Source of the DNA: Cyanobacteria bacterium P01_F01_bin.150
GTDB lineage: Bacteria > Cyanobacteriota > Cyanobacteriia > CAKZMO01
Direction of reading: 5' to 3'
DNA length: 64,000 nucleotides
NCBI GenBank assembly: GCA_039189765.1
Contig: JBCCYL010000004.1
Coordinates: forward strand, 1-64,000
A program made the position numbers and the translations under genes. Under the pieces are notes generated by a model, which made no database searches, had not been told where the DNA came from, and saw only the letters and a list, made by a program, of their open reading frames with translations. Each line of letters begins with the position of its first letter. The stretch's first letter is position 1. Of this stretch, positions 133 through 30,147 are shown one piece after another.

Positions 133-1893
133 ATGCTGTCGACGATCGCGCAATTAAAGGCATGTTTTGAACAGGCTCTGGTCAGTGCCTTTGGCGAGAA
201 CTTAGCTGGAACCGATCCGCTACTAGTGCCTGCCAGTAATCCTAAATTTGGCGACTATCAGGCGAATGTGGCAATGTCATTAGCGAAGCGCCTGAAGAAT
301 AAGCCTAGGGCGATTGCAGAACAAATTGTCCAGCATTTAGACGTAAGCAATCTGTGTGAATTACCCGAGATTGCTGGACCAGGCTTTATTAACCTTCGCC
401 TCAGAACCAGCTATTTGGAACACCAACTTCAGGATATTCGCATAGACGAACGGTTGGGAGTGACCCCCGTGGCTCCCGACCAGCGGGTTATCGTGGATTA
501 CCCCAGCCCAAATATTGCTAAAGAAATGCATGTGGGCCATCTTCGTCCGTCTGTCGTTGGTGATTGTTTGTCACGAATTCTTGAATTCTTGGGCTACGAC
601 CTATTGCGCCTCAGCCATGTCGGAGATTGGGGCACCCCCTTTGGCATGCTAATCGCCTATGTCCGCGAAGCCTATCCCGATATCTTAAAAGCTGATAGCA
701 ATATCGATTTGGGAGATCTAGCGTCTTTCTATCGCAAGGCCAAGCAGCGATTTGATGAAGATACGGCATTTCAGGCAAATGCCCGCCAGTCCGTGGTGGA
801 TTTGCAGGCGGGGGATGAAGAGACCTTGAAGGCATGGCGATTGGTGTGTGATTTATCCAATCGCACAAATCAGAAGATTTTTGACTTAATGGGATTGTGC
901 GACCTAACGATTCGAGGTGAATCGTTCTATAATCCTTACCTGCTCGATGTGTTGACAGCATTGGACGAAAAAGGGCTATTAGTCGAGGACCAGGGAGCTA
1001 AATGTGTCTTCCTAGAAGGTTTCATGAATAAGGATGGCAACCCGCTACCGCTAATTGTGCAAAAGTCTGATGGCGGCTTTAACTATGCCACAACCGACCT
1101 AGCCGCCATTCGCTATCGCTTGGATGAGGACAAGGCAAAGCGGGTGATTTATCCAGTGGGGGCTGAGCAGACGAATCACTTTGCGCAAGTGTTCCAAGTT
1201 GGGCGACGGGCTGGATGGTTGACGGATGACGTGACATTTGTCCACACGCCTTTTGGCATGGTGTTGGGAGAGGATGGTTCCAAGCTCAAGAGCCGGTCTG
1301 GGGAAGCGCCAAAGCTCCATGAGCTGCTAGAGGATGCGATCGCCTATGCCCGCAATGATTTTGAAACCCGTCTCAAAGAGGAAGGACGAGAAGAGCCAGA
1401 GGACTTTGTAGAACATGTCTCCAGGGTAATCGGCATTAGCGCCATTAAATATTCCGACCTGAGTCAAAATCGTACCAGCAACTATATCTTTAATCTGGAG
1501 CGGATGCTGGCCCTCCAGGGGAATACGGCTCCCTATATGATGAATGCCTATGTGCGGGTTCGGGGGATTGGCCGTAAAGGTAATATTGATTTTGATGCTT
1601 TAGGTGAGAATCAAACCGTTTCCCTTGGAGAAGAGTTTGAATTCACCTTGGCCAAGCATATTTTGCAACTGGATGAAATTTTAGCGGAGATTGACAAAGA
1701 TCTTCTGCCCAATCGTTTATGCCAATATCTATTTGAACTCAGCCAAAAATTCAATCAGTTTTACGAAAACTGCCCAGTTCTCAAAGCAGAAGAGCCTACC
1801 CGCACGTCTCGGTTGATTCTGTGTGATCTGACCGCACGAACAATTAAATTAGGACTTTCTTTGTTGGGGATTCCAGTGCTCGATCGAATTTGA
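133..1893 (+). CDS. argS: arginine--tRNA ligase
   Basis: FGDYQAN N-terminal motif, [14 protein letters not shown] (HIGH-like), KLKSR (KMSKS-like), GNTAPY and C-terminal DALR domain. Confidence 0.97.
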
Positions 1894-3078: not shown

Positions 3079-4269
3079 GTGGATGAAATGAATGAGGATA
3101 GTTGCCCTAAAATCCCGTATGCTGGGCTGTCTTTTCAATATCTATTACAGGAGGCCATTTTGTGGTCCGTTTGTAAAACAGCCTCAGAATTGGGCATAAA
3201 ACCTGATGGGACCGTACTCCCAGTCAACCTGAAAACTCTACCCCCACATAAAAATCGGCAGAGCACATTTATCACATATCAAACAGCGATCGCTATTAAA
3301 CTATCACATCGGTGGAATAAGCCACTGGATGACGTTGTTGAACTTATAGATAGGTATCTTCAGGAGCTTATCAACGGCAACCTAGATGAGCAGACAGCCA
3401 AGTTCACAAGCGTTACTTTATCTTCCCAGGCAAAAATGATTTATCGAACGTTGACTTTTTGTCGAACTACAGTTGGGTATATTCAGCTTTGTGTAAGGTC
3501 CGATACTTTAATGACTTGGCTACGGGCATTGCAAAGGACGTTAGCCGAAGACCATATCGCCGACGAGTATCGGAGCAATTTGCAGGGTCTTGGAGAAAAG
3601 CCAGAGATAACCTACGGACATTGGTCTGCACGCCCTTTAATCTGTCCACCCTGTCACATCAGCTTGAACAATATTCCTTTTTCTATCTTGCATGCCTATG
3701 CCCGTGCATGTTCCATCCTACGACTGGCCAATAGCATGGGACAGATTCAGTTGCGTTCTCTTCATCCAAACAGCCGTCCTATGTCTGCGGCAATGACCAA
3801 TACAGTGACGCCAAATATCTTGTACCCGCCCTTTGTCATTGATTATCCCAAAGAGCTACCATGGCAGGCCCTATTGTTAGTCCTTCAAAACAGAGAAACA
3901 TCTCAGACCGAAAAGTATTCAGATAAGGCAGGGCAAAGCAGAACAGACCAGAGCAAGATCGCTAATGATTTAATCTTAGAGACACTGCTAAATATCATCA
4001 CAACTTTAGATCTGGCATTTGGGAGCCATATAGCTGAGTACCGTCAGAATCTGGATGCAAAAAAACGGTTGAAGGCAATTGTCGATTTGGGTACTGCGTT
4101 CCATTTATTTGATAATGAATTTAATGTATGCGGGATCCATTCTCGTCACCGATCCCATCTATCGCATTTATATTTAATTTTTATTATTCAGCGAATTTTA
4201 CACGATTTATTACTCCACACATTTGAGGGTGCGAGGTTATGGCTTGAAACGCTTAATCAGTACTATTAG
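3079..4269 (+). CDS. DALR anticodon-binding-domain protein (degenerate ArgRS-like, no catalytic core)
   Basis: YQTAIAIKLSH resembles the ArgRS N-terminal domain; HAYARACSILRLA resembles the start of a DALR domain; no HIGH or KMSKS motif. Confidence 0.65.
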   Translation: MDEMNEDSCPKIPYAGLSFQYLLQEAILWSVCKTASELGIKPDGTVLPVNLKTLPPHKNRQSTFITYQTAIAIKLSHRWNKPLDDVVELIDRYLQELINGNLDEQTAKFTSVTLSSQAKMIYRTLTFCRTTVGYIQLCVRSDTLMTWLRALQRTLAEDHIADEYRSNLQGLGEKPEITYGHWSARPLICPPCHISLNNIPFSILHAYARACSILRLANSMGQIQLRSLHPNSRPMSAAMTNTVTPNILYPPFVIDYPKELPWQALLLVLQNRETSQTEKYSDKAGQSRTDQSKIANDLILETLLNIITTLDLAFGSHIAEYRQNLDAKKRLKAIVDLGTAFHLFDNEFNVCGIHSRHRSHLSHLYLIFIIQRILHDLLLHTFEGARLWLETLNQYY

Positions 4270-5319: not shown

Positions 5320-6933
5320 CTATGTGGCGTTACTTCCTAAAACAAAAAGACCTAACATCGTTGCACTATTCCATAAACTGTGAACCATCATAGGGGCAAG
5401 TAAGTTTTTAGTGCGTGTATAAACGAAGCCCAATACCATTCCCAAAATCATCAAGGGTAGGATCTCGGACACGCTAAGATGAGCAGCAGCAAAAATAAAG
5501 CTGCTGAGAGCGATCGCGCCCCAAGTGGACATATATCGAGTCATGGAAGGCAGGATAAACCCTCTAAATAGAATTTCTTCAAAAATAGGTGCCGCGATCG
5601 CAGCTGTGAAAAAAAAGATGCCAAGGGCAAAGGGATCCCCCTCTTCCAGTACAGTTTGCAGCAAAGGATTGCTCCCACCTCGGCCTTGCCAAAAAGCCTG
5701 ATTCACCACTGAAACGCCAATGACCAAAGGAATGGCCACCATATAGCCCGAGAATCCCCATAGCCACCATTTTTCCTGAAGATTGATGCGAAACCAATTT
5801 TTCTCAAAGGGCTGATACTTTTTAATCGACACATACAAAACAGCCAGGGTCGCTATTGACATCAAGCTATAGATTGTCAGGGTAGAAATAGCAGTTATCC
5901 GTCCACCGCCTAACCCAGCCATGGCTCCTAGCTGAGCAATTGTGGGCTTAAACGCTTCAAAAAATAGAGGAACGATAACCTGACCCACAATAAAGAAGCC
6001 CACCACCACCACCTGCCAGGTAATTTCCCAATTCCAAGGCGTTTCCCAGGTTTGGGCGTTGCCTTCCGCTAGCATAGCGTCTTGGCCGTTGATAACTCGT
6101 TGAACGACGAGGAAAACGATCAGCCCAATTCCCACAATGCATCCTAAAACAGGTCCCACACTCAGAAGTGCCAACTTTTTGACGGTCTGTTGGGCGATCG
6201 CCTGTTCCTCCTTTTGAAGAGTCGCTAGTGCGTCAGCATCTTGCTGCAGATCGTAGAGGCGGGTGAGGGCGCGATCGCGAAACCAGCCTGTTAACTGACG
6301 TTGGATCTGTGGTTCCATCTCAGCCGAGACTTCAGGAGGATTGGACCATAGCTGAACTAAAAGGGATCCGAGAGTTCGATTATCGATAAAAGACTCCGAC
6401 AGGCTAGACCAACTTGTCCGGGCCGATTCAAGATCCCCCTGATAGGCATGGAGAATACCAATATTAATCTTTAACTGATTAATTAGTCGTTCTTGATCGA
6501 AAAGCTTGGTACGGATACTTTTTATTTGCAGTTCCTGTGGGGTCAATTCAGACGATAAGAGCAAAGAGGAGTCGGTCTTGGCATCCAAATTGTCGGAGGA
6601 AGAAGCAAGGCTTTCTTCTAGCTCTTTTGCTTTCGTCTGTAGTGCTTCTAAATTCTTTTGAGCGGTTTTTCGGGTATCCTGATAGGCCTTGAGGGCCGTT
6701 TCTCCGGGTTTTTTACCGACAAGTGCCATTTGAAGCGGTCCAAACTGTTGTCCAAACTGCCCGTCATCACCTGCTAGTTTGAGTTCACTCGCTTGTAAAA
6801 GCAGGTCCGTTTGATGGAGTTCTAACCGATCGGTAATTTGTTGTTCTTGAATACTGCTAATCAGGGCTGGTCCTGCCAGAAATAGCAGTACAACCACAGT
6901 TAATATCGATAAAATCCCTTGTCTAAGTGTCAT
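5320..6933 (-). CDS. CPBP (CAAX/Abi) family intramembrane glutamic endopeptidase
   Basis: APIFEEILFRG, FAAAH and HSLWN motifs with multiple TM helices. Confidence 0.92.
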   Translation of the reverse strand: MTLRQGILSILTVVVLLFLAGPALISSIQEQQITDRLELHQTDLLLQASELKLAGDDGQFGQQFGPLQMALVGKKPGETALKAYQDTRKTAQKNLEALQTKAKELEESLASSSDNLDAKTDSSLLLSSELTPQELQIKSIRTKLFDQERLINQLKINIGILHAYQGDLESARTSWSSLSESFIDNRTLGSLLVQLWSNPPEVSAEMEPQIQRQLTGWFRDRALTRLYDLQQDADALATLQKEEQAIAQQTVKKLALLSVGPVLGCIVGIGLIVFLVVQRVINGQDAMLAEGNAQTWETPWNWEITWQVVVVGFFIVGQVIVPLFFEAFKPTIAQLGAMAGLGGGRITAISTLTIYSLMSIATLAVLYVSIKKYQPFEKNWFRINLQEKWWLWGFSGYMVAIPLVIGVSVVNQAFWQGRGGSNPLLQTVLEEGDPFALGIFFFTAAIAAPIFEEILFRGFILPSMTRYMSTWGAIALSSFIFAAAHLSVSEILPLMILGMVLGFVYTRTKNLLAPMMVHSLWNSATMLGLFVLGSNAT

Positions 6934-21231: not shown

Positions 21232-21702
21232 ATGTTTTCTCTATTTTCCTTGAACCCACTCAATGCAATCGGCTCTGCCATCCATATGGCAGATGTTCGT
21301 CGCTGGAGTCAAACTCCAGCAGCGATCGCATTGACGATGGGTTGGACCGGAGATAGAGAAATTTGTGCATTTGGCTCTTTGCAATTCTATGGGTTGGGCC
21401 AAAGCATATTAGGTCAGAGTATGGCGTCTAGATTGTTCAGCCCAGTCGCCCAAGAGTGTCATAGATTTAGCCGGAACATTCAGGCAATTATTGATTCAAG
21501 CATCATCGCAAATGGATTCAATATTCAACCATCCATCGTTCAGAGTAGTGAACATCAGGACGAGGAAGAACTAGGCAACAAGAGCCTAGGTTTAGACTAC
21601 GAATATCTGGGCAATCCAGAATTCAAATCGAATCCAAACGTGGATTCATACTCCAGACAACTAATGAGCGGGAGGCATAGGTTTATGCCTGTACCAGGAT
21701 AA
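21232..21702 (+). CDS. hypothetical ORF, candidate leader ORF of the HNH operon
   Basis: 156-codon ORF with no recognisable domain, ending just before a strong hairpin. Confidence 0.45.
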   Translation: MFSLFSLNPLNAIGSAIHMADVRRWSQTPAAIALTMGWTGDREICAFGSLQFYGLGQSILGQSMASRLFSPVAQECHRFSRNIQAIIDSSIIANGFNIQPSIVQSSEHQDEEELGNKSLGLDYEYLGNPEFKSNPNVDSYSRQLMSGRHRFMPVPG

Positions 21703-21860: not shown

Positions 21861-22424
21861 ATGCAATCATCCATATCGTCTCTCAAGCCATTATCATCCC
21901 AGCCAGTTCCTGCTATTTTGCAGAAAAAGGTCGTGGTTTTTTCCTGCACCTATCTGCCCGTGGCACGAATCAACATTAAACGGGCGATCGCCCTGCTCCT
22001 GACTGGTCGAGCCGAATCCCTTGATATGGGCAACGGCAAAGGGTGGAACGTACGGTCTCCAAATTTCGTCCTCCATGTGCCGGAATATATTCGTCTAACC
22101 ACCAGCGATCCAAAACGGAAATGGAAGGTCCCCCCAGTGAACCGACGGGAAGTGTTAAGGCGAGATGCCCACACCTGCCAATACTGCGGCAGTAAGCGAA
22201 AGCTCACCCTTGACCACGTCCTTCCCCGATCTCGGGGTGGTACCCATACCTGGGATAACGTTGTCACTGCTTGTGAGCCGTGTAACTCGTTCAAAAGCGA
22301 TCGCACCCCCAAGGAAGCGGGCATGGTGCTGAAGACAAAAGCGAAAGCTCCCATTCACCCAGCGATCGCCTTTGCTGAGGAATTCTGGAAACACCAAGAC
22401 CAGAGTGCCTTATTTGAAACTTAA
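21861..22424 (+). CDS. HNH endonuclease (McrA-like)
   Basis: RD-HTCQYCG...[27 protein letters not shown]; RBS GGAGG. Confidence 0.95.
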   Translation: [187 protein letters not shown]

Positions 22425-22494: not shown

Positions 22495-22893
22495 ATGTTG
22501 AAGCTCAACTACACCGATCTCGGTTTGCACATGGAACATGTCACTGCGTCTGTAGACGTTATCGTTGCGCAGTATGTACTGGTTGCCATGCGGTTAGGGA
22601 AGTCTATGCACGTAGAGCAGAGTCGTGCCTCGTTTTTGATGCCCGCAGATTCGATCACTCTTACTCAACTACAGGATGTATTACAACACGGTTGTGATAC
22701 ACCATTTGAGGGAGAAGTGGCGATCGCCCCTGTGGACCATGCCTTTGTTGAAATCAGCATGAGCGGCACCTGGATGTCTGAAGCTTTGGATGGAGATGTC
22801 GGTATTTTCCTTACCTCTTTTGATCTTCATACAGAGTATCTTCTCCACCAAATTTGGCAAGAGACTCAGCGTCAAACTAGTCTTTTAAGCTAG
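22495..22893 (+). CDS. alr0857-family cyanobacterial protein
   Basis: MLKLNYT...ASFL-P...GTW...EY-LH-IWQE pattern recalled for this family; directly follows the HNH gene. Confidence 0.7.
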   Translation: MLKLNYTDLGLHMEHVTASVDVIVAQYVLVAMRLGKSMHVEQSRASFLMPADSITLTQLQDVLQHGCDTPFEGEVAIAPVDHAFVEISMSGTWMSEALDGDVGIFLTSFDLHTEYLLHQIWQETQRQTSLLS

Positions 22894-23677: not shown

Positions 23678-23755
23678 GGGGATGTAGCTCAGCCGGTTTA
23701 GAGCACCTGTCTGTCGAACAGGACGTCGCGGGTTCGAATCCCGTCATCCTCGCCA
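23678..23755 (+). tRNA. trnD: tRNA-Asp(GTC)
   Basis: Canonical cloverleaf, CCTGT-CT GTC GA-ACAGG, encoded CCA. Confidence 0.95.
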
Positions 23756-23816
23756 TTTATGTCCCATAGAAACGTCTGAGATGATGGCATTGCCGTTATC
23801 TCAGGCGAATACTTAT

Positions 23817-23890
23817 AGTCTCGTGGACGAATAGATAAGTCGCTTTGGTTCTCAGCCAGAGAGAAGCGGGTGCAACTCCCGTCGGGACTT
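23817..23890 (+). tRNA. trnE: tRNA-Glu(CTC), atypical
   Basis: Acceptor AGTCTCG/CGGGACT; loop TT CTC AG; T loop TGCAACT; D loop has AG instead of GG. Confidence 0.75.
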
Positions 23891-23893
23891 TAA

Positions 23894-23968
23894 GTCCAGG
23901 TAGCCAAGTGGAAAGGCGTTGGTCTGCAAAACTAAAAATCATGGGTTCGATTCCCATCCTGGACTCCA
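23894..23968 (+). tRNA. trnC: tRNA-Cys(GCA)
   Basis: GTCCAGG/CCTGGAC, U73, CT GCA AA, CCA. Confidence 0.93.
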
Positions 23969-24030
23969 AATTTTCAACTCTCAGATCCCAGGGTTCTCAA
24001 AGAACCCTGGGATCTCAAACCACAATCTGA

Positions 24031-24105
24031 CGGAGTGTAGCTCAACGGTAGAGCACTAGGCTCATAACCTAGCACGTGCGGGTTCGACTCCCGCCACTCC
24101 CACCA
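24031..24105 (+). tRNA. trnM: tRNA-Met(CAT) with C1:C72 mismatch
   Basis: CTAGG-CT CAT AA-CCTAG; CCA; the 1:72 mismatch is initiator-like but the three G-C anticodon-stem pairs are incomplete. Confidence 0.88.
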
Positions 24106-24152
24106 ACTGTGATGACATACGAAGTCTGTACTCATATGTTTGCAGTTTGTTT

Positions 24153-24226
24153 GGGCGGGTAGCTCAACTGGCTAGAGCAGCGGTCTCCAAAACCGCAGGT
24201 TGCAGGTTCGACCCCTGTCCCGCTCG
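24153..24226 (+). tRNA. trnW: tRNA-Trp(CCA)
   Basis: GCGGT-CT CCA AA-ACCGC; G73. Confidence 0.92.
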
Positions 24227-24301
24227 TGAGACACAGCAAGTCTCTCCCTTAAGACAGTGGTGGATGTCCTCCACATCCACCGCTTTACTTCTCAAAACCT
24301 T

Positions 24302-24379
24302 GGTGCCGTAGGCAAATTTGGTAAAGCCACATGACTTTCAATCATGTGTTTGCGGGTTCGAGTCCCGTCGGCACTTCCA
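24302..24379 (+). tRNA. trnE: tRNA-Glu(TTC)
   Basis: CATGA-CT TTC AA-TCATG; CCA. Confidence 0.9.
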
Positions 24380-24423
24380 GTTTTTCACCCCCTCTAACTC
24401 CCCCTTGGCAAGGGGGAGGACCT

Positions 24424-24506
24424 GGGTCGGCCCGCCTATTGGAGTGAGGCAACGGTCTGTAAAGCCGCCGCGTAACGCGTTGCAGGTTCAACCCCTGCCC
24501 GACCCA
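24424..24506 (+). tRNA. trnY: tRNA-Tyr(GTA)
   Basis: GGGTCGG/CCGACCC, CT GTA AA, variable arm CGCG-TAA-CGCG; C at position 8. Confidence 0.85.
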
Positions 24507-24596
24507 TAGCCCCGCGATCGCCACAGGATCCCCGGCTTTTCTCTCTCAATCCGGGGATCTACCGCTCAAGCGATATTTCGATTATTTCAACGACCT

Positions 24597-24687
24597 GGAG
24601 AGGTCGCCATTGGCAAAGCAAGCTGCCTGCTAAGCAGTCGTGGGTCTAAACGGTCCACTGTGGGTTCGACTCCCACCCTCTCCGCCA
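24597..24687 (+). tRNA. trnS: tRNA-Ser(GCT), aberrant D arm
   Basis: GGAGAGG/CCTCTCC G CCA, GCTGC-CT GCT AA-GCAGT, long variable arm, poorly paired D arm. Confidence 0.85.
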
Positions 24688-24732
24688 GAATCTTAGTTTT
24701 TTGGGGCGATCGCATAAGCAGTCCAATAGTCT

Positions 24733-24809
24733 GAGGGCGTGGTGTAAATGGATAACACGCCAGGTTGCGAACCTGGAGAGTAGGGGTTCAAGTCCCTTCG
24801 TCCTCGCCA
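24733..24809 (+). tRNA. trnR: tRNA-Arg(GCG)
   Basis: CCAGG-TT GCG AA-CCTGG; GAGGGCG/CGTCCTC G CCA. Confidence 0.88.
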
Positions 24810-24838
24810 AATACATAACATTTCTGTAAGTCATTCAT

Positions 24839-24923
24839 GGAGGTTGTCCGGCATGGACGAGGAAAGCGTCTTGAAAACGCCTGCGGCTACAAACCGTCAA
24901 GGGTTCGATTCCCTTAGCCTCCG
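24839..24923 (+). tRNA. trnS: tRNA-Ser(TGA)
   Basis: GGAGGTT/AGCCTCC G, CT TGA AA, long variable arm. Confidence 0.85.
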
Positions 24924-24972
24924 CTTTTCCCATGTAGGGTGGGCATCGCCCACCACCACCATATCCAAATCT

Positions 24973-25044
24973 GGGGACGTAGCTGAGATGGATTAGCGTC
25001 AGGTTGAAGCCCTGAAGAGGTAGGTTCAATACCTACCGTTCCCA
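24973..25044 (+). tRNA. trnF: tRNA-Phe(GAA)
   Basis: TCAGG-TT GAA GC-CCTGA; GGGGACG/CGTTCCC A. Confidence 0.88.
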
Positions 25045-25106
25045 TCCTCTGTATTGGTTAAGCATTATTGCTTAAGAACAGAGGGTTAACCAATACGGAG
25101 CATTAA

Positions 25107-25182
25107 TGCCTCATAGCTCAACTGGCAGAGCGAGCGGCTGTTAACCGCGAGGTTGTAGGTTCGAGTCCTACTGGGGCAGCCA
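25107..25182 (+). tRNA. trnN: tRNA-Asn(GTT)
   Basis: CT GTT AA loop, TGCCTCA/TGGGGCA G CCA. Confidence 0.92.
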
Positions 25183-25274
25183 ATTTTACCCCCTCAATCC
25201 TAATCCGATTCCCTCCCCTTGCTTTTGGCATTAGCCTGCCCGGAGGGCATAGGGGAAGGCCAGGGTGGGGTCAT

Positions 25275-25350
25275 TGCCGAGTGGACGAATTAGCAAGTCG
25301 CCTGACTCTGAATCAGGAGGTTGTAGGTGCGAATCCTACCTCGGCATCCA
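25275..25350 (+). tRNA. trnQ: tRNA-Gln(CTG) copy 1
   Basis: CCTGA-CT CTG AA-TCAGG; T loop TGCGAAT; CCA. Confidence 0.88.
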
Positions 25351-25363
25351 ACAATTAAGTTAA

Positions 25364-25436
25364 TCCCCTGTGGTGTAACTGGTAACACGTCCGATTTTGG
25401 CTCGGAAGAGTCTAGGTTCGAGACCTAGCGGGGGAG
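25364..25436 (+). tRNA. trnQ: tRNA-Gln(TTG)
   Basis: TCCGA-TT TTG GC-TCGGA; U1-A72, G73. Confidence 0.88.
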
Positions 25437-25484
25437 TTGGGGAAATTTGATTATGCCTGGGTCAATCACGTTTCTCCTTTTCAT

Positions 25485-25562
25485 GCTCCTGTAGCCCAAC
25501 TGGCAGAGGCGGCTGTCTTAGAAGCAGTCCATGTGTGGGTTCAAATCCCACCAGGAGTACCA
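25485..25562 (+). tRNA. trnL: tRNA-Leu(TAG), short variable region
   Basis: CT TAG AA loop; A73 CCA; no long variable arm. Confidence 0.88.
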
Positions 25563-25615
25563 AATTTGCGTCCGGGTCCCTCCCTTTAGCAAGGAGAGGG
25601 CTAGGATGAGGTCAT

Positions 25616-25691
25616 TGCCGAGTGGACGAATTAGCAAGTCGCCTGACTCTGAATCAGGAGGTTGTAGGTGCAAATCCTACCTCGGCATCCA
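25616..25691 (+). tRNA. trnQ: tRNA-Gln(CTG) copy 2
   Basis: One substitution relative to 25275-25350. Confidence 0.88.
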
Positions 25692-25751
25692 AACATTTCC
25701 TGAGGTTATCCGATCACTTTGCGCTCAGATCTCCTCCAAAAAAGATTTCAT

Positions 25752-25822
25752 TGCCTTCTGGTGTAATGGCAGCATCTTGCACTTTGAATGCGATGGTCCA
25801 GGTTCAAGTCCTGGGAGGGCAG
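25752..25822 (+). tRNA. trnQ: tRNA-Gln(TTG), second and distinct gene
   Basis: TTGCA-CT TTG AA-TGCGA; TGCCTTC/GAGGGCA G. Confidence 0.85.
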
Positions 25823-25880
25823 TCGGGGGGAGCAGGATATAGCCTGGGTCAAATTTATCCTTAACCTCCTGTTTTTTCAT

Positions 25881-25958
25881 ACTCCTGTAGCCCAATTGGC
25901 AGAGGCGGCTGTCTCAGAAGCAGTCCACGTGTGGGTTCAAATCCCACCAGGAGTACCA
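25881..25958 (+). tRNA. trnL: tRNA-Leu(CAG), short variable region
   Basis: CT CAG AA; near-identical to Leu(TAG); CCA. Confidence 0.88.
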
Positions 25959-25967
25959 ATTTTTTAA

Positions 25968-26045
25968 GCTCCTGTAGCCCAACTGGTAGAGGCAACTGTC
26001 TTAAAAACAGTTCATGTGTGGGTTCGAATCCCATCAGGAGTACCA
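25968..26045 (+). tRNA. trnL: tRNA-Leu(TAA), short variable region, intronless
   Basis: ACTGT-CT TAA AA-ACAGT; CCA. Confidence 0.88.
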
Positions 26046-26050
26046 TCTAT

Positions 26051-26125
<75 letters not shown>

Positions 26126-26129
26126 CTTT

Positions 26130-26207
26130 GCTCCTGTAGCCCAATTGGCAGAGGCGGCTGTCTCAAAAACAGTCTATGTGTGGGTTCAAATCCCACCAGG
26201 AGTACCA
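26130..26207 (+). tRNA. trnL: tRNA-Leu(CAA), short variable region
   Basis: CT CAA AA; CCA. Confidence 0.88.
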
Positions 26208-26211
26208 GCAC

Positions 26212-26287
26212 ACTCCCGTGGCGGAACGGCAGACGCACCAGACCGAGGATCTGGGTTTTGTGGGTTCGAATCCCACCGGGAGTACCA
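26212..26287 (+). tRNA. trnL: tRNA-Leu(GAG), short variable region, C33
   Basis: CCAGA-CC GAG GA-TCTGG; ACTCCCG/CGGGAGT A CCA. Confidence 0.85.
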
Positions 26288-26289
26288 AT

Positions 26290-26365
26290 GGGTCGCTAGC
26301 TCAATTGGCAGAGCATCCGGCTTTTAACCGGAGGGTTCAGGGTTCGATGCCCTGGCGACCCACCA
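26290..26365 (+). tRNA. trnK: tRNA-Lys(TTT)
   Basis: Canonical GGGTCGC..., CT TTT AA, CCA. Confidence 0.95.
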
Positions 26366-26369
26366 AATC

Positions 26370-26470
26370 GATTTTAGATTGATGATTTTAGATTTTGGAT
26401 TAGCACGTTCGTGCAACCTCCCAACGGGAATCACCCATCTTCCAAAATCCAAAATCTAAAATCCAAAATT
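26370..26470. repeat. inverted heptamer tandem repeats (STRR-like, GATTTT(A/G) / (T/C)AAAATC)
   Basis: GATTTTAGATT...GATTTTAGATTTTGGATT facing CCAAAATCCAAAATCTAAAATCCAAAAT, forming a long hairpin. Confidence 0.75.
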
Positions 26471-26475
26471 CAATC

Positions 26476-26547
26476 GGGCTGTTAGCTAAGTGGTAAAGCA
26501 GCCGCCTCTTAAGCGGAAGAGCATGGGTTCAACTCCCATACAGCCCA
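26476..26547 (+). tRNA. trnK: tRNA-Lys(CTT)
   Basis: GGGCTGT/ACAGCCC A; CT CTT AA. Confidence 0.9.
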
Positions 26548-26548
26548 T

Positions 26549-26627
26549 TGCGGGGATGGAGCAACAGTTTGGCTCGACGGTCTCATAAGCCGTAAATCGG
26601 TGAGTGCAATTCTCACCCCCGCGTCCA
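26549..26627 (+). tRNA. tRNA-(f)Met(CAT)-like, atypical
   Basis: TGCGGGG/CCCCGCG, ACGGT-CT CAT AA-GCCGT, T loop TGCAATT, extra nucleotide before the D stem, CCA. Confidence 0.7.
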
Positions 26628-26630
26628 ACT

Positions 26631-26704
26631 GCGAATGTGATGTAACGGTAGCATGTGAGGCTTCCAACCTCTTCGTGCAGGTTCAAATCCTGTCATTCGC
26701 TCCA
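26631..26704 (+). tRNA. trnG: tRNA-Gly(TCC)
   Basis: GCGAATG/CATTCGC T CCA; CT TCC AA. Confidence 0.9.
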
Positions 26705-26708
26705 AATT

Positions 26709-26783
<75 letters not shown>

Positions 26784-26785
26784 GC

Positions 26786-26857
26786 GCGGATGTGGTGTAA
26801 GTGGAAACATCAAAGACTGCCAAGCTTTAGTTGCGAGTTCGACCCTCGTCATCCGCT
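26786..26857 (+). tRNA. trnG: tRNA-Gly(GCC)
   Basis: GCGGATG/CATCCGC T; CT GCC AA. Confidence 0.88.
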
Positions 26858-26953
26858 TTGTTAGCTTTAGAAGCTAGTATCCTAGCCAAGACGCCAGATG
26901 CAATGCAAATTCCGCCTTCTGCCTTTTGCTTTCTACCCTCTGCCTTGCTTCAA

Positions 26954-27054
26954 AGTCCCGTAGCTCAACGGTGGAGCACTTGTCTTACAAACAAGGGGTT
27001 GTGGGTATTCCCTATCGGGAACGCTTGCGCGAACAAATCCCACCGGGACCACCA
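26954..27054 (+). tRNA. trnV: tRNA-Val(TAC) interrupted by a 26-nt T-loop insertion (27008-27033)
   Basis: CTTGT-CT TAC AA-ACAAG; T stem GTGGG/CCCAC encloses the insert; A1:C72 mismatch; CCA. Confidence 0.8.
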
Positions 27055-27057
27055 TTT

Positions 27058-27134
27058 GGGAGTGTAGCTCAATGGACTAGAGCACCGATCTTCTAAATCG
27101 GCTGTTGTAGGTTCGAATCCTACCACTCCTGCCA
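27058..27134 (+). tRNA. trnR: tRNA-Arg(TCT)
   Basis: CCGAT-CT TCT AA-ATCGG; CCA. Confidence 0.93.
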
Positions 27135-27160
27135 TCTCGCACAAAACATATAGCCAACAT

Positions 27161-27234
27161 GGGCCTGTAGCTTAACTGGGAAAGCGTCTGTCTTGCAAAC
27201 AGAAAGATGTCGGTTCGATTCCGACCAGTGTCCA
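27161..27234 (+). tRNA. trnA: tRNA-Ala(TGC), bulged acceptor stem
   Basis: TCTGT-CT TGC AA-ACAGA; G3-U70; one extra nucleotide in the 3' acceptor strand. Confidence 0.78.
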
Positions 27235-27293
27235 CTTGCCGGAGGGGCGATCGCACCCCACCCAATCGCCCTCTGGCTCTTCATCATACTTGT

Positions 27294-27392
27294 GGGAGTG
27301 TCGCCTAATGGATTGGGCACCAGTCTTCGAAACTGGTCTGTGTGGGTAACTCCTAACGGAGACGCTTGCGCGAACGATTCCTACCACTCCTG
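27294..27392 (+). tRNA. trnR: tRNA-Arg(TCG) interrupted by a 26-nt T-loop insertion (27349-27374)
   Basis: CCAGT-CT TCG AA-ACTGG; T stem GTGGG/CCTAC encloses the insert. Confidence 0.8.
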
Positions 27393-27400
27393 TCAAATTC

Positions 27401-27472
27401 GGGACCATAGCTCAACTGGAAGAGCACCTGCCTTGCAAGCGGGAGGTAGGGGTTCGATTCCCCTTGGCTCCA
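27401..27472 (+). tRNA. trnA: tRNA-Ala(TGC), second gene
   Basis: CT TGC AA; G3-U70, A73; A4:C69 mismatch. Confidence 0.87.
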
Positions 27473-27474
27473 CT

Positions 27475-27551
27475 GTGACGGAAACCGAAGTGTTCGAGGT
27501 GCTGGTCTGTGAAACCAGTTTTAGCGAGTTAGAGTCTCGTCCGTCACCCCA
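27475..27551 (+). tRNA. trnH: tRNA-His(GTG), atypical, no encoded G-1
   Basis: GTGACGG/CCGTCAC C CCA; CTGGT-CT GTG AA-ACCAG; T loop TTAGAGT. Confidence 0.72.
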
Positions 27552-27571
27552 AGTTCTCTCACTCCATATAT

Positions 27572-27680
27572 GGAAGGTGCCGCCAATGGTTGGCAATCGG
27601 TCTCGAAATCCGAGGGATAGCATCGCTATCGGGGTTTCTCCTATCAGAGACGCTTACGCGAACAATTCCTCCACCTTCCG
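27572..27680 (+). tRNA. trnS: tRNA-Ser(CGA) interrupted by a 26-nt T-loop insertion (27637-27662)
   Basis: GGAAGGT/ACCTTCC G; CT CGA AA; long variable arm GATAGC-ATC-GCTATC. Confidence 0.78.
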
Positions 27681-27692
27681 CTCCAAAAACAT

Positions 27693-27770
27693 GTTGGCCG
27701 AATCCAAAGTGGACGCGGAACTGGTTTGTGACACCAGTTGTAGCGGGTTCAAGTCCCGTCGGTCAACCCA
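27693..27770 (+). tRNA. trnH: tRNA-His(GTG) with G-1:C73
   Basis: G-TTGGCCG/CGGTCAA-C CCA; CTGGT-TT GTG AC-ACCAG. Confidence 0.82.
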
Positions 27771-27775
27771 TTTCT

Positions 27776-27889
27776 GGAAGGTGCCGCTAATGGTTGGCAA
27801 TCGGTTTGGAACACCGAGGGATGGCATGCTGCTATCGAGGTTTCTCCTATCGGAGACGCTGACGCGAACGATTCCTCCTCCTTCCGCCA
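27776..27889 (+). tRNA. trnS: tRNA-Ser(GGA) interrupted by a 26-nt T-loop insertion (27843-27868)
   Basis: TCGGT-TT GGA AC-ACCGA; long variable arm; G73 CCA. Confidence 0.78.
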
Positions 27890-28329: not shown

Positions 28330-28782
28330 ATGACCATTTACTTTTATAGCAACCGTGAAAAGCCCTATGGATGCTTTTCAAACTTTTCAAGTCATGGATT
28401 TGAATTAGATGGTCAGTGGTGGCCAACAAGTGAGCACTATTTTCAAGCCCAGAAGTTTATTGAAACGGCACCGTATTGGGCCAAGAAAATCCAAGAGGCT
28501 AAAGCTCCTAAAATTGCTGCCACGATGGGGCGCGATCGCCGCTACCCTCTCCGCACTGATTGGGAAGACGTAAAGGACGACATTATGAGTAATGCCGTTC
28601 TTCAAAAATTCACTACCCATGAGGATATTCGCTCCATCCTCTTATCCACCAGAGATAAGCACATAGTCGAAAATGCGCCCGGAGACTACTACTGGGGCTG
28701 TGGTAAAGACGGCAGCGGCAAAAACAAGCTGGGCCAGATTTTAGTGGCCGTTCGTGCCCAGCTTAGAGAACAATCACCGTAA
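28330..28782 (+). CDS. NADAR (YbiA-like) family protein
   Basis: YGCFSNFS, WPTSEHYFQAQKF, R-DWE-VKDDIM, DYYWGCG-DGSGKNKLG; RBS GGAGG. Confidence 0.95.
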   Translation: MTIYFYSNREKPYGCFSNFSSHGFELDGQWWPTSEHYFQAQKFIETAPYWAKKIQEAKAPKIAATMGRDRRYPLRTDWEDVKDDIMSNAVLQKFTTHEDIRSILLSTRDKHIVENAPGDYYWGCGKDGSGKNKLGQILVAVRAQLREQSP

Positions 28783-28795
28783 TTCTAAATACGCC

Positions 28796-29551
28796 ATGAG
28801 TGAACATCGGCTCGACGAAATATTAATTGAGCGCCCCCGCAGCGGGTGGCGCAAGAAAACGTCTCGCAATACAAAATTCTGGAGACAGCTTACGGAGGAA
28901 GCTAGCACCGATGGGTTATTAAGACCGTATCGAATTAAGACTCGCGATCGCACCAAGTATCTCTCTGATAATCTAGGACCGCTACGAGGTTTTTTACAAT
29001 CCAGGGTGGGCCAGCAGTGGGATGAGGTGTACAGCGAACTATCTCAGCGGCTCGATCGCAATACCGTATCGGGGCAACATGTGATTCAACACCTTTGGCT
29101 GGAGGTCTATCGTTATGTCGAAATTATCGATGGCGTAGTCTACTCCAAAGCTGGGGCAGATGGCTGGTATGGTAGCCGGGAATTGGGGCGATGGCGTAGA
29201 GATTTTTATGTTCATCCTCAAACGGGAGTGCTGTGTGTTGTCAATCGCAAGCCCCGCCGAGCCAAACCTAAGCCTGACAAGGATGTGATTAAAATCAACG
29301 ATCGCTACCACTATCGCAAAATTAATGGGATTTGGTACGAAATTGAACTCCAGGATATTCCCCGCTTTCGATCGGTGCGGGATGTGGTGCTGAAGGTAAC
29401 GGTGAGTCCTACTATGAGCGATCGCACCCGACATCTTATTTGCCACACTTATTGGCAATTTGGAAAAGACCAATATGCAGCCCGTAAGCGTCAATGTAAT
29501 AAAAAGGAGTTGAAGCATATCTCCAAACAAATCAACACTCAACAATCTTAA
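28796..29551 (+). CDS. basic (Arg/Lys-rich) hypothetical protein
   Basis: Long ORF from ATG 28796; IERPR, TKYLSDNLGPL...VGQQWD-VYSEL, FYVHP-TG, KINGIWYE motifs; function not recognised. Confidence 0.8.
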   Translation: MSEHRLDEILIERPRSGWRKKTSRNTKFWRQLTEEASTDGLLRPYRIKTRDRTKYLSDNLGPLRGFLQSRVGQQWDEVYSELSQRLDRNTVSGQHVIQHLWLEVYRYVEIIDGVVYSKAGADGWYGSRELGRWRRDFYVHPQTGVLCVVNRKPRRAKPKPDKDVIKINDRYHYRKINGIWYEIELQDIPRFRSVRDVVLKVTVSPTMSDRTRHLICHTYWQFGKDQYAARKRQCNKKELKHISKQINTQQS

Positions 29552-29908: not shown

Positions 29909-30006
29909 GGCGTTGGGGCGTTGGGGCGTTGGAAGGTTTCGAGTTTTGAATTAGGTTTTCTGCCTTCTGCTTTTATTTCTGCCTTCTGTCTTCTGCCTTC
30001 TGCCTT
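29909..30006. repeat. short tandem repeats (GGCGTTGG x3; TTCTGCC-type heptamers)
   Basis: Directly visible; the same TTCTGCC heptamers occur at 26910-26946. Confidence 0.75.
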
Positions 30007-30147
30007 TCTTATCATTTGACACGTGCTATCCAGATGATTGCTATGGATACGGTGTGATTGTGCTTTCCTTTGACAAGATTTAACAGCTATTGGTGTGCTC
30101 CGCATCTCAATGGTCTGCCTTAAAATTTGGGCCATACTCCAAAAATA

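Follow-up and report, generated by a model that had tools for sequence, protein, structure and literature searches.

The window considered here, by which we mean the whole 64,000-nt stretch of contig JBCCYL010000004.1 from Cyanobacteria bacterium P01_F01_bin.150, carries at 23678..27889 an array of tRNA genes, all on the + strand, in which four genes are interrupted within the T loop by copies of a 26-nt element that forms two hairpins. The array, delimited with ARAGORN, Rfam and gene order, holds within 4.2 kb 31 genes called by ARAGORN (at 23678-27770) and the four interrupted genes, which occupy its 3' end (the final 900 bp) and none of which is among the ARAGORN calls. A His-like gene at 27475-27548 is recognized by the Rfam tRNA model, and a Tyr gene is reported by ARAGORN at the -ps90 setting. 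The array is of the L type, as it has more than 20 dense co-oriented tRNA genes, a conserved gene order and an upstream gene for an HNH endonuclease (21861..22424, + strand, matching Pfam HNH_5 and HNH). Conserved tRNA order and an upstream HNH endonuclease gene are the hallmarks of L-arrays in the accessible text of Santamaria-Gomez et al. 2021 (PMC8421152), and the order Met-Thr-Gly-Val-Arg(tct)-Ala-His-Ser seen here is common to the delta-plasmid of Anabaena 7120 and to other cyanobacterial arrays.

The first interrupted gene, tRNA-Val(TAC) at 26954..27054, encodes its CCA end and contains element copy 1 at 27008..27033, with hairpin-1 arms TTCCC/GGGAA and A as the preceding base, position 55. 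The second, tRNA-Arg(TCG) at 27294..27392, contains copy 2 at 27349..27374, with arms ACTCC/GGAGA including an A.A mismatch and again A at position 55. A tRNA-Ser(CGA)-like gene at 27572..27681, with the weakest cloverleaf of the four, contains copy 3 at 27637..27662, with arms TCTCC/AGAGA and one mismatch, and tRNA-Ser(GGA) at 27776..27889, with an encoded CCA, contains copy 4 at 27843..27868, with arms TCTCC/GGAGA. Genes and elements all lie on the + strand, so that each copy is in sense orientation relative to its host, and each sits at the T-loop step between positions 55 and 56. A sequence-only reading of this DNA had placed the four 26-nt strings at exactly these coordinates, and it was right in this.

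Uncut, the four genes are poorly recognized as tRNAs. The Rfam tRNA model matches Val (26954-27051) with 49.2 bits and Arg (27294-27392) with 37.4 bits, against a gathering score of 29, in both cases with 32 nt where the model expects six T-loop positions; Ser(CGA) gives only a sub-threshold match to tRNA-Sec (23.7 bits), and uncut Ser(GGA) has no Rfam match. After excision of the 26 nt in silico, the default threshold of ARAGORN suffices for Val(tac), Arg(tcg) and Ser(gga) to be called, and Ser(cga) is called at -ps90. Excision gives back a 7-nt T loop in every case (TA|CAAAT, TA|CGATT, TT|CAATT and TT|CGATT), as the sequence-only reading had said, and no direct repeat flanks any of the four copies, in agreement with its claim that there is no target duplication. 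Its remark that Val(TAC) is the sole Val gene of the array is also correct, as ARAGORN calls no other, and its count of at least three insertion events holds for this window.

Four such elements are not to be expected by chance. A degenerate pattern allowing up to three mismatches finds these four sites only in the 64 kb, where 0.08 are expected, and none of 100 shuffles reaches four; since the same feature is also present in independent assemblies, we reject chance and assembly artefact alike. We built a covariance model, R1, from 17 of 19 distinct copies, all of 26 nt, leaving out two 24-nt variants whose alignment gaps were misplaced. Scanned with R1 (filters off), copies 1 to 4 score 41.4, 43.0, 40.1 and 43.1 bits respectively, and the next match in the window scores 13.4 bits with an E value of 0.04, which is to be taken as rough. 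That match, in an array spacer at 25225..25249 on the - strand, is 25 nt long, forms two small, perfect hairpins, ends in AA and runs opposite to the array. The sequence-only reading had found no copy elsewhere in the window, which stands for close copies but has to allow for this possible diverged fifth member; its membership in the family is plausible, although uncertain. It is enclosed, in the Asn-Gln spacer, by a 9-bp outer hairpin on the minus strand (CCTTCCCCT / AGGGGAGGG, within 25195-25275), a layout like that of a T arm with an insert.

Each of the four elements, folded alone, forms both of the hairpins that had been proposed for it, hairpin 1 being reduced to 4 bp in the Ser(CGA) copy. 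Covariation in hairpin 1, likewise proposed, is well supported: pair 2-13 is CG in eight copies, GC in four and UA in three, pair 3-12 is UA in 12, GC in three and CG in two, and none of 500 shuffles reaches the covariation score. Paired cells make up 93.4% in hairpin 1 as against 82.8% in shuffles, and slid registers collapse. The bases of hairpin 2 were fixed by the search pattern, so covariation there is uninformative, although GGC/GCC variants, two only (in array L103 described below and in the candidate fifth copy), hint at it. In the minimum-free-energy fold of the Ser(GGA) precursor the cloverleaf is kept, with both hairpins within the T loop, whereas in those of Val and Arg a G.U-rich helix joins the 5' strand of the T stem to the hairpin-2 region. 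No bulge-helix-bulge or other splice-site structure appears in the minimum-free-energy or centroid folds of the four window precursors. We also rejected the idea that the insert or its surroundings contain a known RNA family, as Rfam gives tRNA only; weak matches to YrlA, Plastid-ycf2 and mir-737 fall below gathering scores and are tRNA or repeat look-alikes. No Rfam intron family matches significantly at E values up to 1, apart from one chance-level group II fragment elsewhere in the array.

To place these inserts in a wider setting we compared 15 other cyanobacterial arrays, namely four loci from a pattern scan of genome contigs (L032, L042, L062 and L069) and eleven PLSDB plasmid arrays found by blastn (L099 to L109), locating copies with R1 (filters off) and by Rfam tRNA matches of abnormal length. 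This comparison, which the sequence-only reading had proposed as a check, found the insert at the same T-loop step in 21 more genes, together with one chimeric T-arm fragment, in nine of the 15 arrays. Eight of the inserts, one of them a head-to-head composite, are in L062 (Nodosilinea) and three in L069. L042 has two and the chimeric fragment, L099 (Nostoc PCC 7524) two, one composite, and L104 (Nostoc TCL26-01) two. Single inserts occur in L032, L107 (a composite), L108 and L103, the last a weak match of 9.8 bits in a T-arm context whose host becomes a tRNA after excision. We found none in L100 (Anabaena 7120), L101, L102, L105, L106 or L109. Many of the copies in these arrays are shorter variants of 22-25 nt with 3-nt loops. 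Counting the window, all 25 T-loop inserts have the sense orientation and immediately precede C56. Carriers outside the Nostocales are Nodosilinea, a metagenome-assembled genome (MAG) of the Leptolyngbyaceae, a 'Cyanothece' MAG and the window itself, which is rich in HIP1 octamers (68 against 0.76 expected), a mark of cyanobacterial DNA.

The arrays also hold family members at other places. A reversed 22-nt copy lies in the variable region of Arg(ACG) in both L099 and L101, and in L102 (Tolypothrix PCC 7601) an Arg(TCG)-type gene has, in place of its anticodon loop, a 37-nt perfect palindrome (5550-5586) whose ends, TTCGCG...CGCGAA, are family-like. The L102 array is additionally split by an annotated IS701 transposase gene. 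The chimera in L042, at 6340-6417 on the minus strand, consists of the 5' half of the T arm from the interrupted Arg(TCG) gene, followed by a copy of the element and then by Gly(TCC) sequence from the 3' end, which suggests a rearrangement with its breakpoint at the 3' junction of the element.

The family also occurs outside tRNA genes. The genome contig collection was scanned once with an exact 17-base degenerate pattern, yielding 98 loci, of which 25 are cyanobacterial and 73 are not. The inner four base pairs of hairpin 1 are fully paired in 19 of the 25 cyanobacterial loci as opposed to three of the other 73; with hairpin 1 absent, we treated the non-cyanobacterial loci, mostly in apparent coding regions, as chance matches. 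Only four of the 25 are array T loops (Arg(TCG) in L042, Ala(TGC) in L062, Arg(ACG) in L069 and Ile(GAT) in L032), while 21 are non-tRNA sites in 11 genomes, mostly of heterocystous cyanobacteria. None of the 25 lies in an isolated (housekeeping) tRNA gene, whole carrier genomes being outside that scan. By the same exact pattern Fischerella has three copies, Calothrix MO_167.B12 (a MAG) five, and two other MAGs three each. Several non-tRNA copies are embedded in heptamer tandem repeats (GGGGATC, AATGTTC-like and CCTCCTG-like runs), and copies within one genome have long flanks in common, so that there the module belongs to larger repeats; nested or composite copies occur in L107, L099 and L062. 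Copy density differs widely, with nine copies in about 3 kb of array in L062 and six further copies in 184 kb around the Nostocales seeds. The unit is 22-29 nt long across the family.

What the copies consistently have in common is the 3' flank. In every T loop this begins with C56, and G or A comes next; in nine of 12 non-T-loop contexts, including the two reversed Arg(ACG) copies (T^CGG on the bottom strand), it reads CG. None of the 68 HIP1 sites of the window carries an element copy in the R1 scan. When the element was removed in silico from the 12 non-tRNA contexts, to see whether hairpin loops are targeted, at least three flank pairs span the junction in nine, most of them no better than shuffles. 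The sequence-only reading had offered, as one of two possibilities, an element of the small dispersed repeat (SDR) type that specifically targets tRNA T loops. The first half of this gains from the non-tRNA copies, the 21 further T-loop genes and the insert-free orthologues described next, but exclusivity for T loops does not hold: the copies in the Arg(ACG) variable region, the anticodon loop and the heptamer repeats, and probably the spacer hairpin of the window, make "specifically" too strong a word.

Alignment of orthologous genes with and without the insert, also among the checks proposed at the outset, was possible at close range for Val twice and for Ser(GGA) once. Outside the insert, the window Val gene differs from the intact Val(TAC) of L042 at two positions, one base in the D loop and base 55. 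The interrupted Val of Nostoc PCC 7524 differs from the intact Val of Calothrix NIES-22 at base 55 and one base of the acceptor. As the two Val lineages are clearly distinct, Val has been hit twice. The window Ser(GGA) has the same T arm as its intact orthologue in Kovacikia minuta (L101), with the 26 nt exactly between TT and CG. Conversely, Gly, Arg(ACG/GCG), Arg(TCT), Ala, Trp, Thr and a Gln-like gene are intact in the window and interrupted in other arrays. These alignments show that the insertions are recent and independent of one another.

In keeping with a young age, there is no general decay of the hosts. Twenty of 22 simple interrupted genes are recognized as tRNAs by ARAGORN after excision, and excised genes have a mean of 1.6 unpaired stem positions compared with 1.25 in 83 uninterrupted array tRNAs. 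Damage is present in some: Gly in L042 has a 6-nt anticodon loop and mismatches, Ala in L062 has CGCCC as the T-loop half after the insert and hence no A at position 58, and the window Ser(CGA) and Ser(GGA) genes have eight unpaired stem positions each. Glu-like interrupted genes in L103 (3900-4010) and L104 (3790-3900) have apparently oversized anticodon loops of about 9 nt and are called Glu(ttc) after excision.

Base 55 is A in 12, T in nine and G in one of the 22 interrupted genes (A 12, T seven and G one among the 20 that are recognized), whereas it is A in none of the 83 intact array tRNAs. A55 is present in both independent Val events with almost no other change, so it seems to arrive together with the insert. 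A separate departure is seen in uninterrupted window tRNAs, where Glu-ctc, two Gln-ctg and one Met-cat (23817-23890, 25275-25350, 25616-25691 and 26549-26627) have G55 in a TGC... loop, as do tRNAs in the L042, L062 and L069 arrays, so that departures from the universal U55 exist in array tRNAs even without an insert.

Position matters for what these genes can do. An insert between positions 55 and 56 disrupts the contacts that build the tRNA elbow, and with these broken no role in translation is expected unless the insert is removed. We favor, with moderate confidence, the reading that the 26-nt unit is a miniature mobile two-hairpin repeat of the SDR type and that its hosts are most likely disabled for translation. 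On this reading the element would belong to the roughly 22-29-nt two-hairpin dispersed repeats of cyanobacteria, and it is probably actively mobile. A copy would integrate as DNA, in one orientation and with no target duplication, immediately 5' of a C, usually as CG or CA, the C flank together with the T-loop context probably serving as the recognition feature. T loops would be strongly preferred, and in tRNA genes the favored step would be T55^C56, within GGTT^CRA of the T-loop coding sequence. Many tRNA genes of the L-type arrays, which are horizontally mobile, would have been hit in repeated, independent events, with hits surviving only in the redundant array genes, where housekeeping copies elsewhere may permit tolerance. 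At the RNA level the insert would separate U54 and base 55 from C56-A58, such that the elbow between T loop and D loop would not form normally. The four window genes would then give tRNA-like transcripts unused in translation and would in effect be young pseudogenes, not intron-containing genes.

Several observations weigh against this reading. We have identified no transposase or other mobilizing enzyme, RAYT/Y1 transposases not having been searched for. The orientation is sense in 25 of 25 T loops despite the palindromic TTCGAA core. We saw no close non-tRNA copy in the window or in the 12-kb loci of non-Nostocales genomes, so that activity of the element in those hosts is presumed. The good state of 20 of the 22 hosts fits young insertions, but would fit retained function equally well, and A55 fits an insert copied with its neighboring base better than simple cut-and-insert. 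Finally, the Arg(TCG) genes of the window and L042, both interrupted, differ in the body by five substitutions and one indel and in the element by two positions; in the stems one pair has changed in a compensatory way and two others are wobble/Watson-Crick swaps, and both element differences are in hairpin loops (chance about 0.09). This is weak evidence for constraint after insertion, with too few changes to decide. A similar "compensatory" change in the T stem of Arg(ACG) (L062 versus L069), considered as a sign of selection after insertion, was rejected since it also occurs among intact orthologues and so predates the inserts.

One serious rival, though we hold it to be unlikely, addresses some of these points directly: after one or a few primary insertions the insert may have spread from T arm to T arm by short-patch gene conversion or template switching, guided by the flanking conserved GGT... 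and ...CRAATCC. Such copying would account for the fixed position, for the sense orientation found throughout, for the confinement to arrays, in which donor and recipient lie near each other, and for the co-transfer of A55, twice independently in Val and in 12 of 20 overall. The window Val and the L062 Ala have the same whole T arm (GTGGG/CCCAC) and the same hairpin-1 variant, and the L042 chimera of an Arg(TCG) T-arm half, element and Gly(TCC) 3' end fits this rival as well. However, T stems differ among most hosts, so that the common homology is only a few bases; copies within one array are not near-identical, differing at several positions and in loop length; and copying between T arms cannot produce the non-tRNA or the reversed copies.

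It is likewise unlikely, in our estimation, that the insert is a functional RNA module, kept because the interrupted tRNAs have a use. The versions we considered are removal by an endonuclease with ligation by RtcB, a fold switch that keeps the tRNA inactive, and a tRNA-like RNA that, its anticodon arm being intact, acts as a decoy or sponge for stress-induced tRNA nucleases. In the accessible text of PMC8421152, rtcB is co-regulated with the array, and operonic tRNAs are cleaved under stress and proposed as possible sponges. The intact cloverleaves of 20 of 22 excised genes, the strict sense orientation, the existence of the array Val as an interrupted copy only, and the Arg(TCG) pair, with its compensatory change and its element differences confined to loops, would all suit a retained function, and the alternative helix of the T-stem 5' strand with the hairpin-2 region in Val and Arg could compete with the T stem. 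That helix is rich in G.U, however, and, as we read the folds, weakened in the L042 orthologue. There is no bulge-helix-bulge or other conserved junction structure in the folds, and U55, essential for a normal elbow, is replaced by A in 12 of the 20 recognized genes. The Arg(ACG) T-stem difference between L062 and L069 predates the inserts. That insert-free orthologues are nearly identical marks the insert as dispensable and young. Copies of the module are found in DNA outside tRNA genes, in heptamer repeats and antisense to tRNA genes, and in the Anabaena 7120 array, which has been studied experimentally, there is no insert.

The second possibility of the sequence-only reading, a new class of tiny T-loop intron or switch removed at the RNA level, accordingly gains no positive support: there is no splice structure, A55 is present in 12 of 22 interrupted genes and some of these genes have decayed. 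A particular form of it, to which we assign quite a low probability, would make the inserts protein-dependent intervening sequences or maturation switches, cut by an endonuclease and resealed by RtcB under stress, or, if left unspliced, decoys for anticodon nucleases, and would treat the SDR copies of the Nostocales as escaped relatives. Lower still is the probability that the array-linked HNH endonuclease cuts T-loop DNA and that the inserts are repair scars or protective disruptions of its site: an annotated HNH gene lies upstream of seven of the 11 plasmid arrays (L099, L100, L102, L104, L105, L106 and L108) as well as of the window array, and phage T4 SegB cuts within tRNA genes, a similar role having been proposed for the HNH enzyme in the accessible text of PMC8421152, but L100, L105 and L106 have the HNH gene and no insert, most tRNA genes of every array are uninterrupted, and the module is also present far from arrays.

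Several further features of the arrays and their neighborhoods were seen along the way. In the window, an alr0857-family gene (22495-22893) lies between the HNH gene and the array, and a NADAR-domain gene (28330-28782, with ribofla_fusion / NADAR anti-phage family matches) lies directly downstream; the open reading frames at 21232-21702 and 28796-29551 have no family match. Between Lys(ttt) and Lys(ctt) an AT-rich heptamer-like block with a long inverted repeat occupies 26366-26470 and gives weak mir-737 look-alike matches on both strands, and similar ctgcctt-type repeats are found at about 26905-26950 and 29950-30010. L069 (6781-6863) and L062 (8208-8290) each have, between Glu(ctc)/Arg(ccg) and Cys, a stretch of 83 nt that matches the Rfam tmRNA model from one end to the other but for its deleted middle, scoring 52.2 and 46.8 bits respectively against a gathering score of 47. 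These are tRNA-like genes that resemble the tRNA domain of tmRNA, and the window has no gap at the corresponding place. The Nostoc PCC 7524 array includes, at 2991, a tRNA to which ARAGORN assigns the anticodon CTA (amber-reading, labelled Pyl), and a CTA-anticodon tRNA is also called at 3600-3720 in the Nostoc TCL26-01 array after excision of its T-loop insert. About 4 kb from the L042 array, a 119-nt match to the tRNA model (1709-1827, minus strand, 48.3 bits) has an insertion of about 45 nt in the anticodon-arm region which is not a member of the element family.

If the element is indeed mobile, its 22-29 nt would place it with the smallest DNA elements for which insertion at a single defined nucleotide step has been shown. 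We know of no account of how SDR-type repeats move, and dozens of independent events with insert-free orthologues would offer a natural data set on the question. A practical consequence is that the tRNAs of cyanobacterial arrays are under-counted, as ARAGORN misses all of the interrupted genes, four here and eight in one Nodosilinea array; tables of array composition and conclusions about the supply of isoacceptors are affected, the sole Val gene of this array being interrupted. The elements are also carried within a horizontally mobile array into lineages from which SDRs have been reported to be absent. Should removal at the RNA level or a decoy role prove true instead, it would amount to a new type of tRNA processing in bacteria. 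Two strains with inserts, Nostoc sp. PCC 7524 and Nodosilinea sp. LEGE 07088, are available from culture collections. The literature searched yielded no account of T-loop inserts in array tRNAs, although Elhai 2008 and Puerto-Galan and Vioque 2012 may bear on it. A term search found no mention of such inserts in the accessible text of PMC8421152 and PMC4758250 or in one supplement of PMC8421152 consisting of array composition and count tables, as distinct from the supplementary figures.

Among known systems, tRNA introns and other insertions at tRNA genes are the obvious candidates. Bacterial tRNA introns are normally group I introns in the anticodon loop, while archaeal and red-algal introns are spliced by proteins and occur at non-canonical positions including the T arm. 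The element resembles them in being an intervening sequence in an otherwise intact tRNA gene whose excision gives a canonical cloverleaf, but it has a bacterial host, occurs in non-tRNA DNA as well and comes with an altered base 55. Identity with a group I intron is rejected because the insert, at 26 nt, has no catalytic core, lies in the T loop instead of the anticodon loop and has no Rfam intron match. Identity with a protein-spliced intron is rejected because the junctions form no bulge-helix-bulge in the folds of the four precursors. Phage and genomic-island integrases use T-loop attachment sites, inserting kilobases and rebuilding the 3' end of the tRNA by duplication; symmetric T-arm DNA is favored for insertion here too, but what is inserted is 26 nt, with no duplication. 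The element is also not a miniature inverted-repeat transposable element or otherwise derived from an insertion sequence, having no target-site duplication and, in its 26-nt form, ends that are not inverted repeats of each other.

Hairpin repeats offer closer parallels. Short tandemly repeated heptamers (STRRs) within the gene for RNase P RNA in heterocystous cyanobacteria, reportedly described by Vioque in 1997, are likewise repeats in a loop of a structural RNA gene with the remaining fold kept; their host is essential and active, in contrast to the redundant tRNA genes hit by the element, at the critical site of the elbow. The REP/REPIN elements mobilized by RAYT are, like the element, very short, non-coding, hairpin-forming repeats that spread through genomes, and the accessible part of PMC3116915 names SDRs as possibly related to them. 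REPINs differ in being extragenic doublets tied to a RAYT gene, whereas the element targets the inside of genes.

The nearest match appears to be the SDRs themselves, of which SDR1-8, from Nostoc punctiforme and relatives, with sizes of 21-27 nt, were reportedly described by Elhai et al. in 2008 (Genome Res 18:1484). By description, SDR4, SDR5 and SDR6 especially resemble the element, in size range (21-27 nt for SDRs, 22-29 nt here) and in forming hairpins. As with SDRs, copies are dispersed and numerous in heterocystous cyanobacteria, lie within heptamer repeats, may be nested, have no transposase and no target duplication, and are present or absent between relatives. A very short unit, many dispersed copies, embedding in repeats and apparent mobility at orthologous sites are thus all found here, with the caveat on dispersal that the window itself holds four copies and one doubtful one, all in the array. 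As cited from Elhai 2008 in the accessible text of PMC5861425, SDR5 inserts in HIP1 in Nostocaceae and no SDR was found outside that family, whereas the element is also present in arrays of non-Nostocales. A further difference is that the T-loop copies occupy genes for a structural RNA, invariably at a single nucleotide step and with the same orientation.

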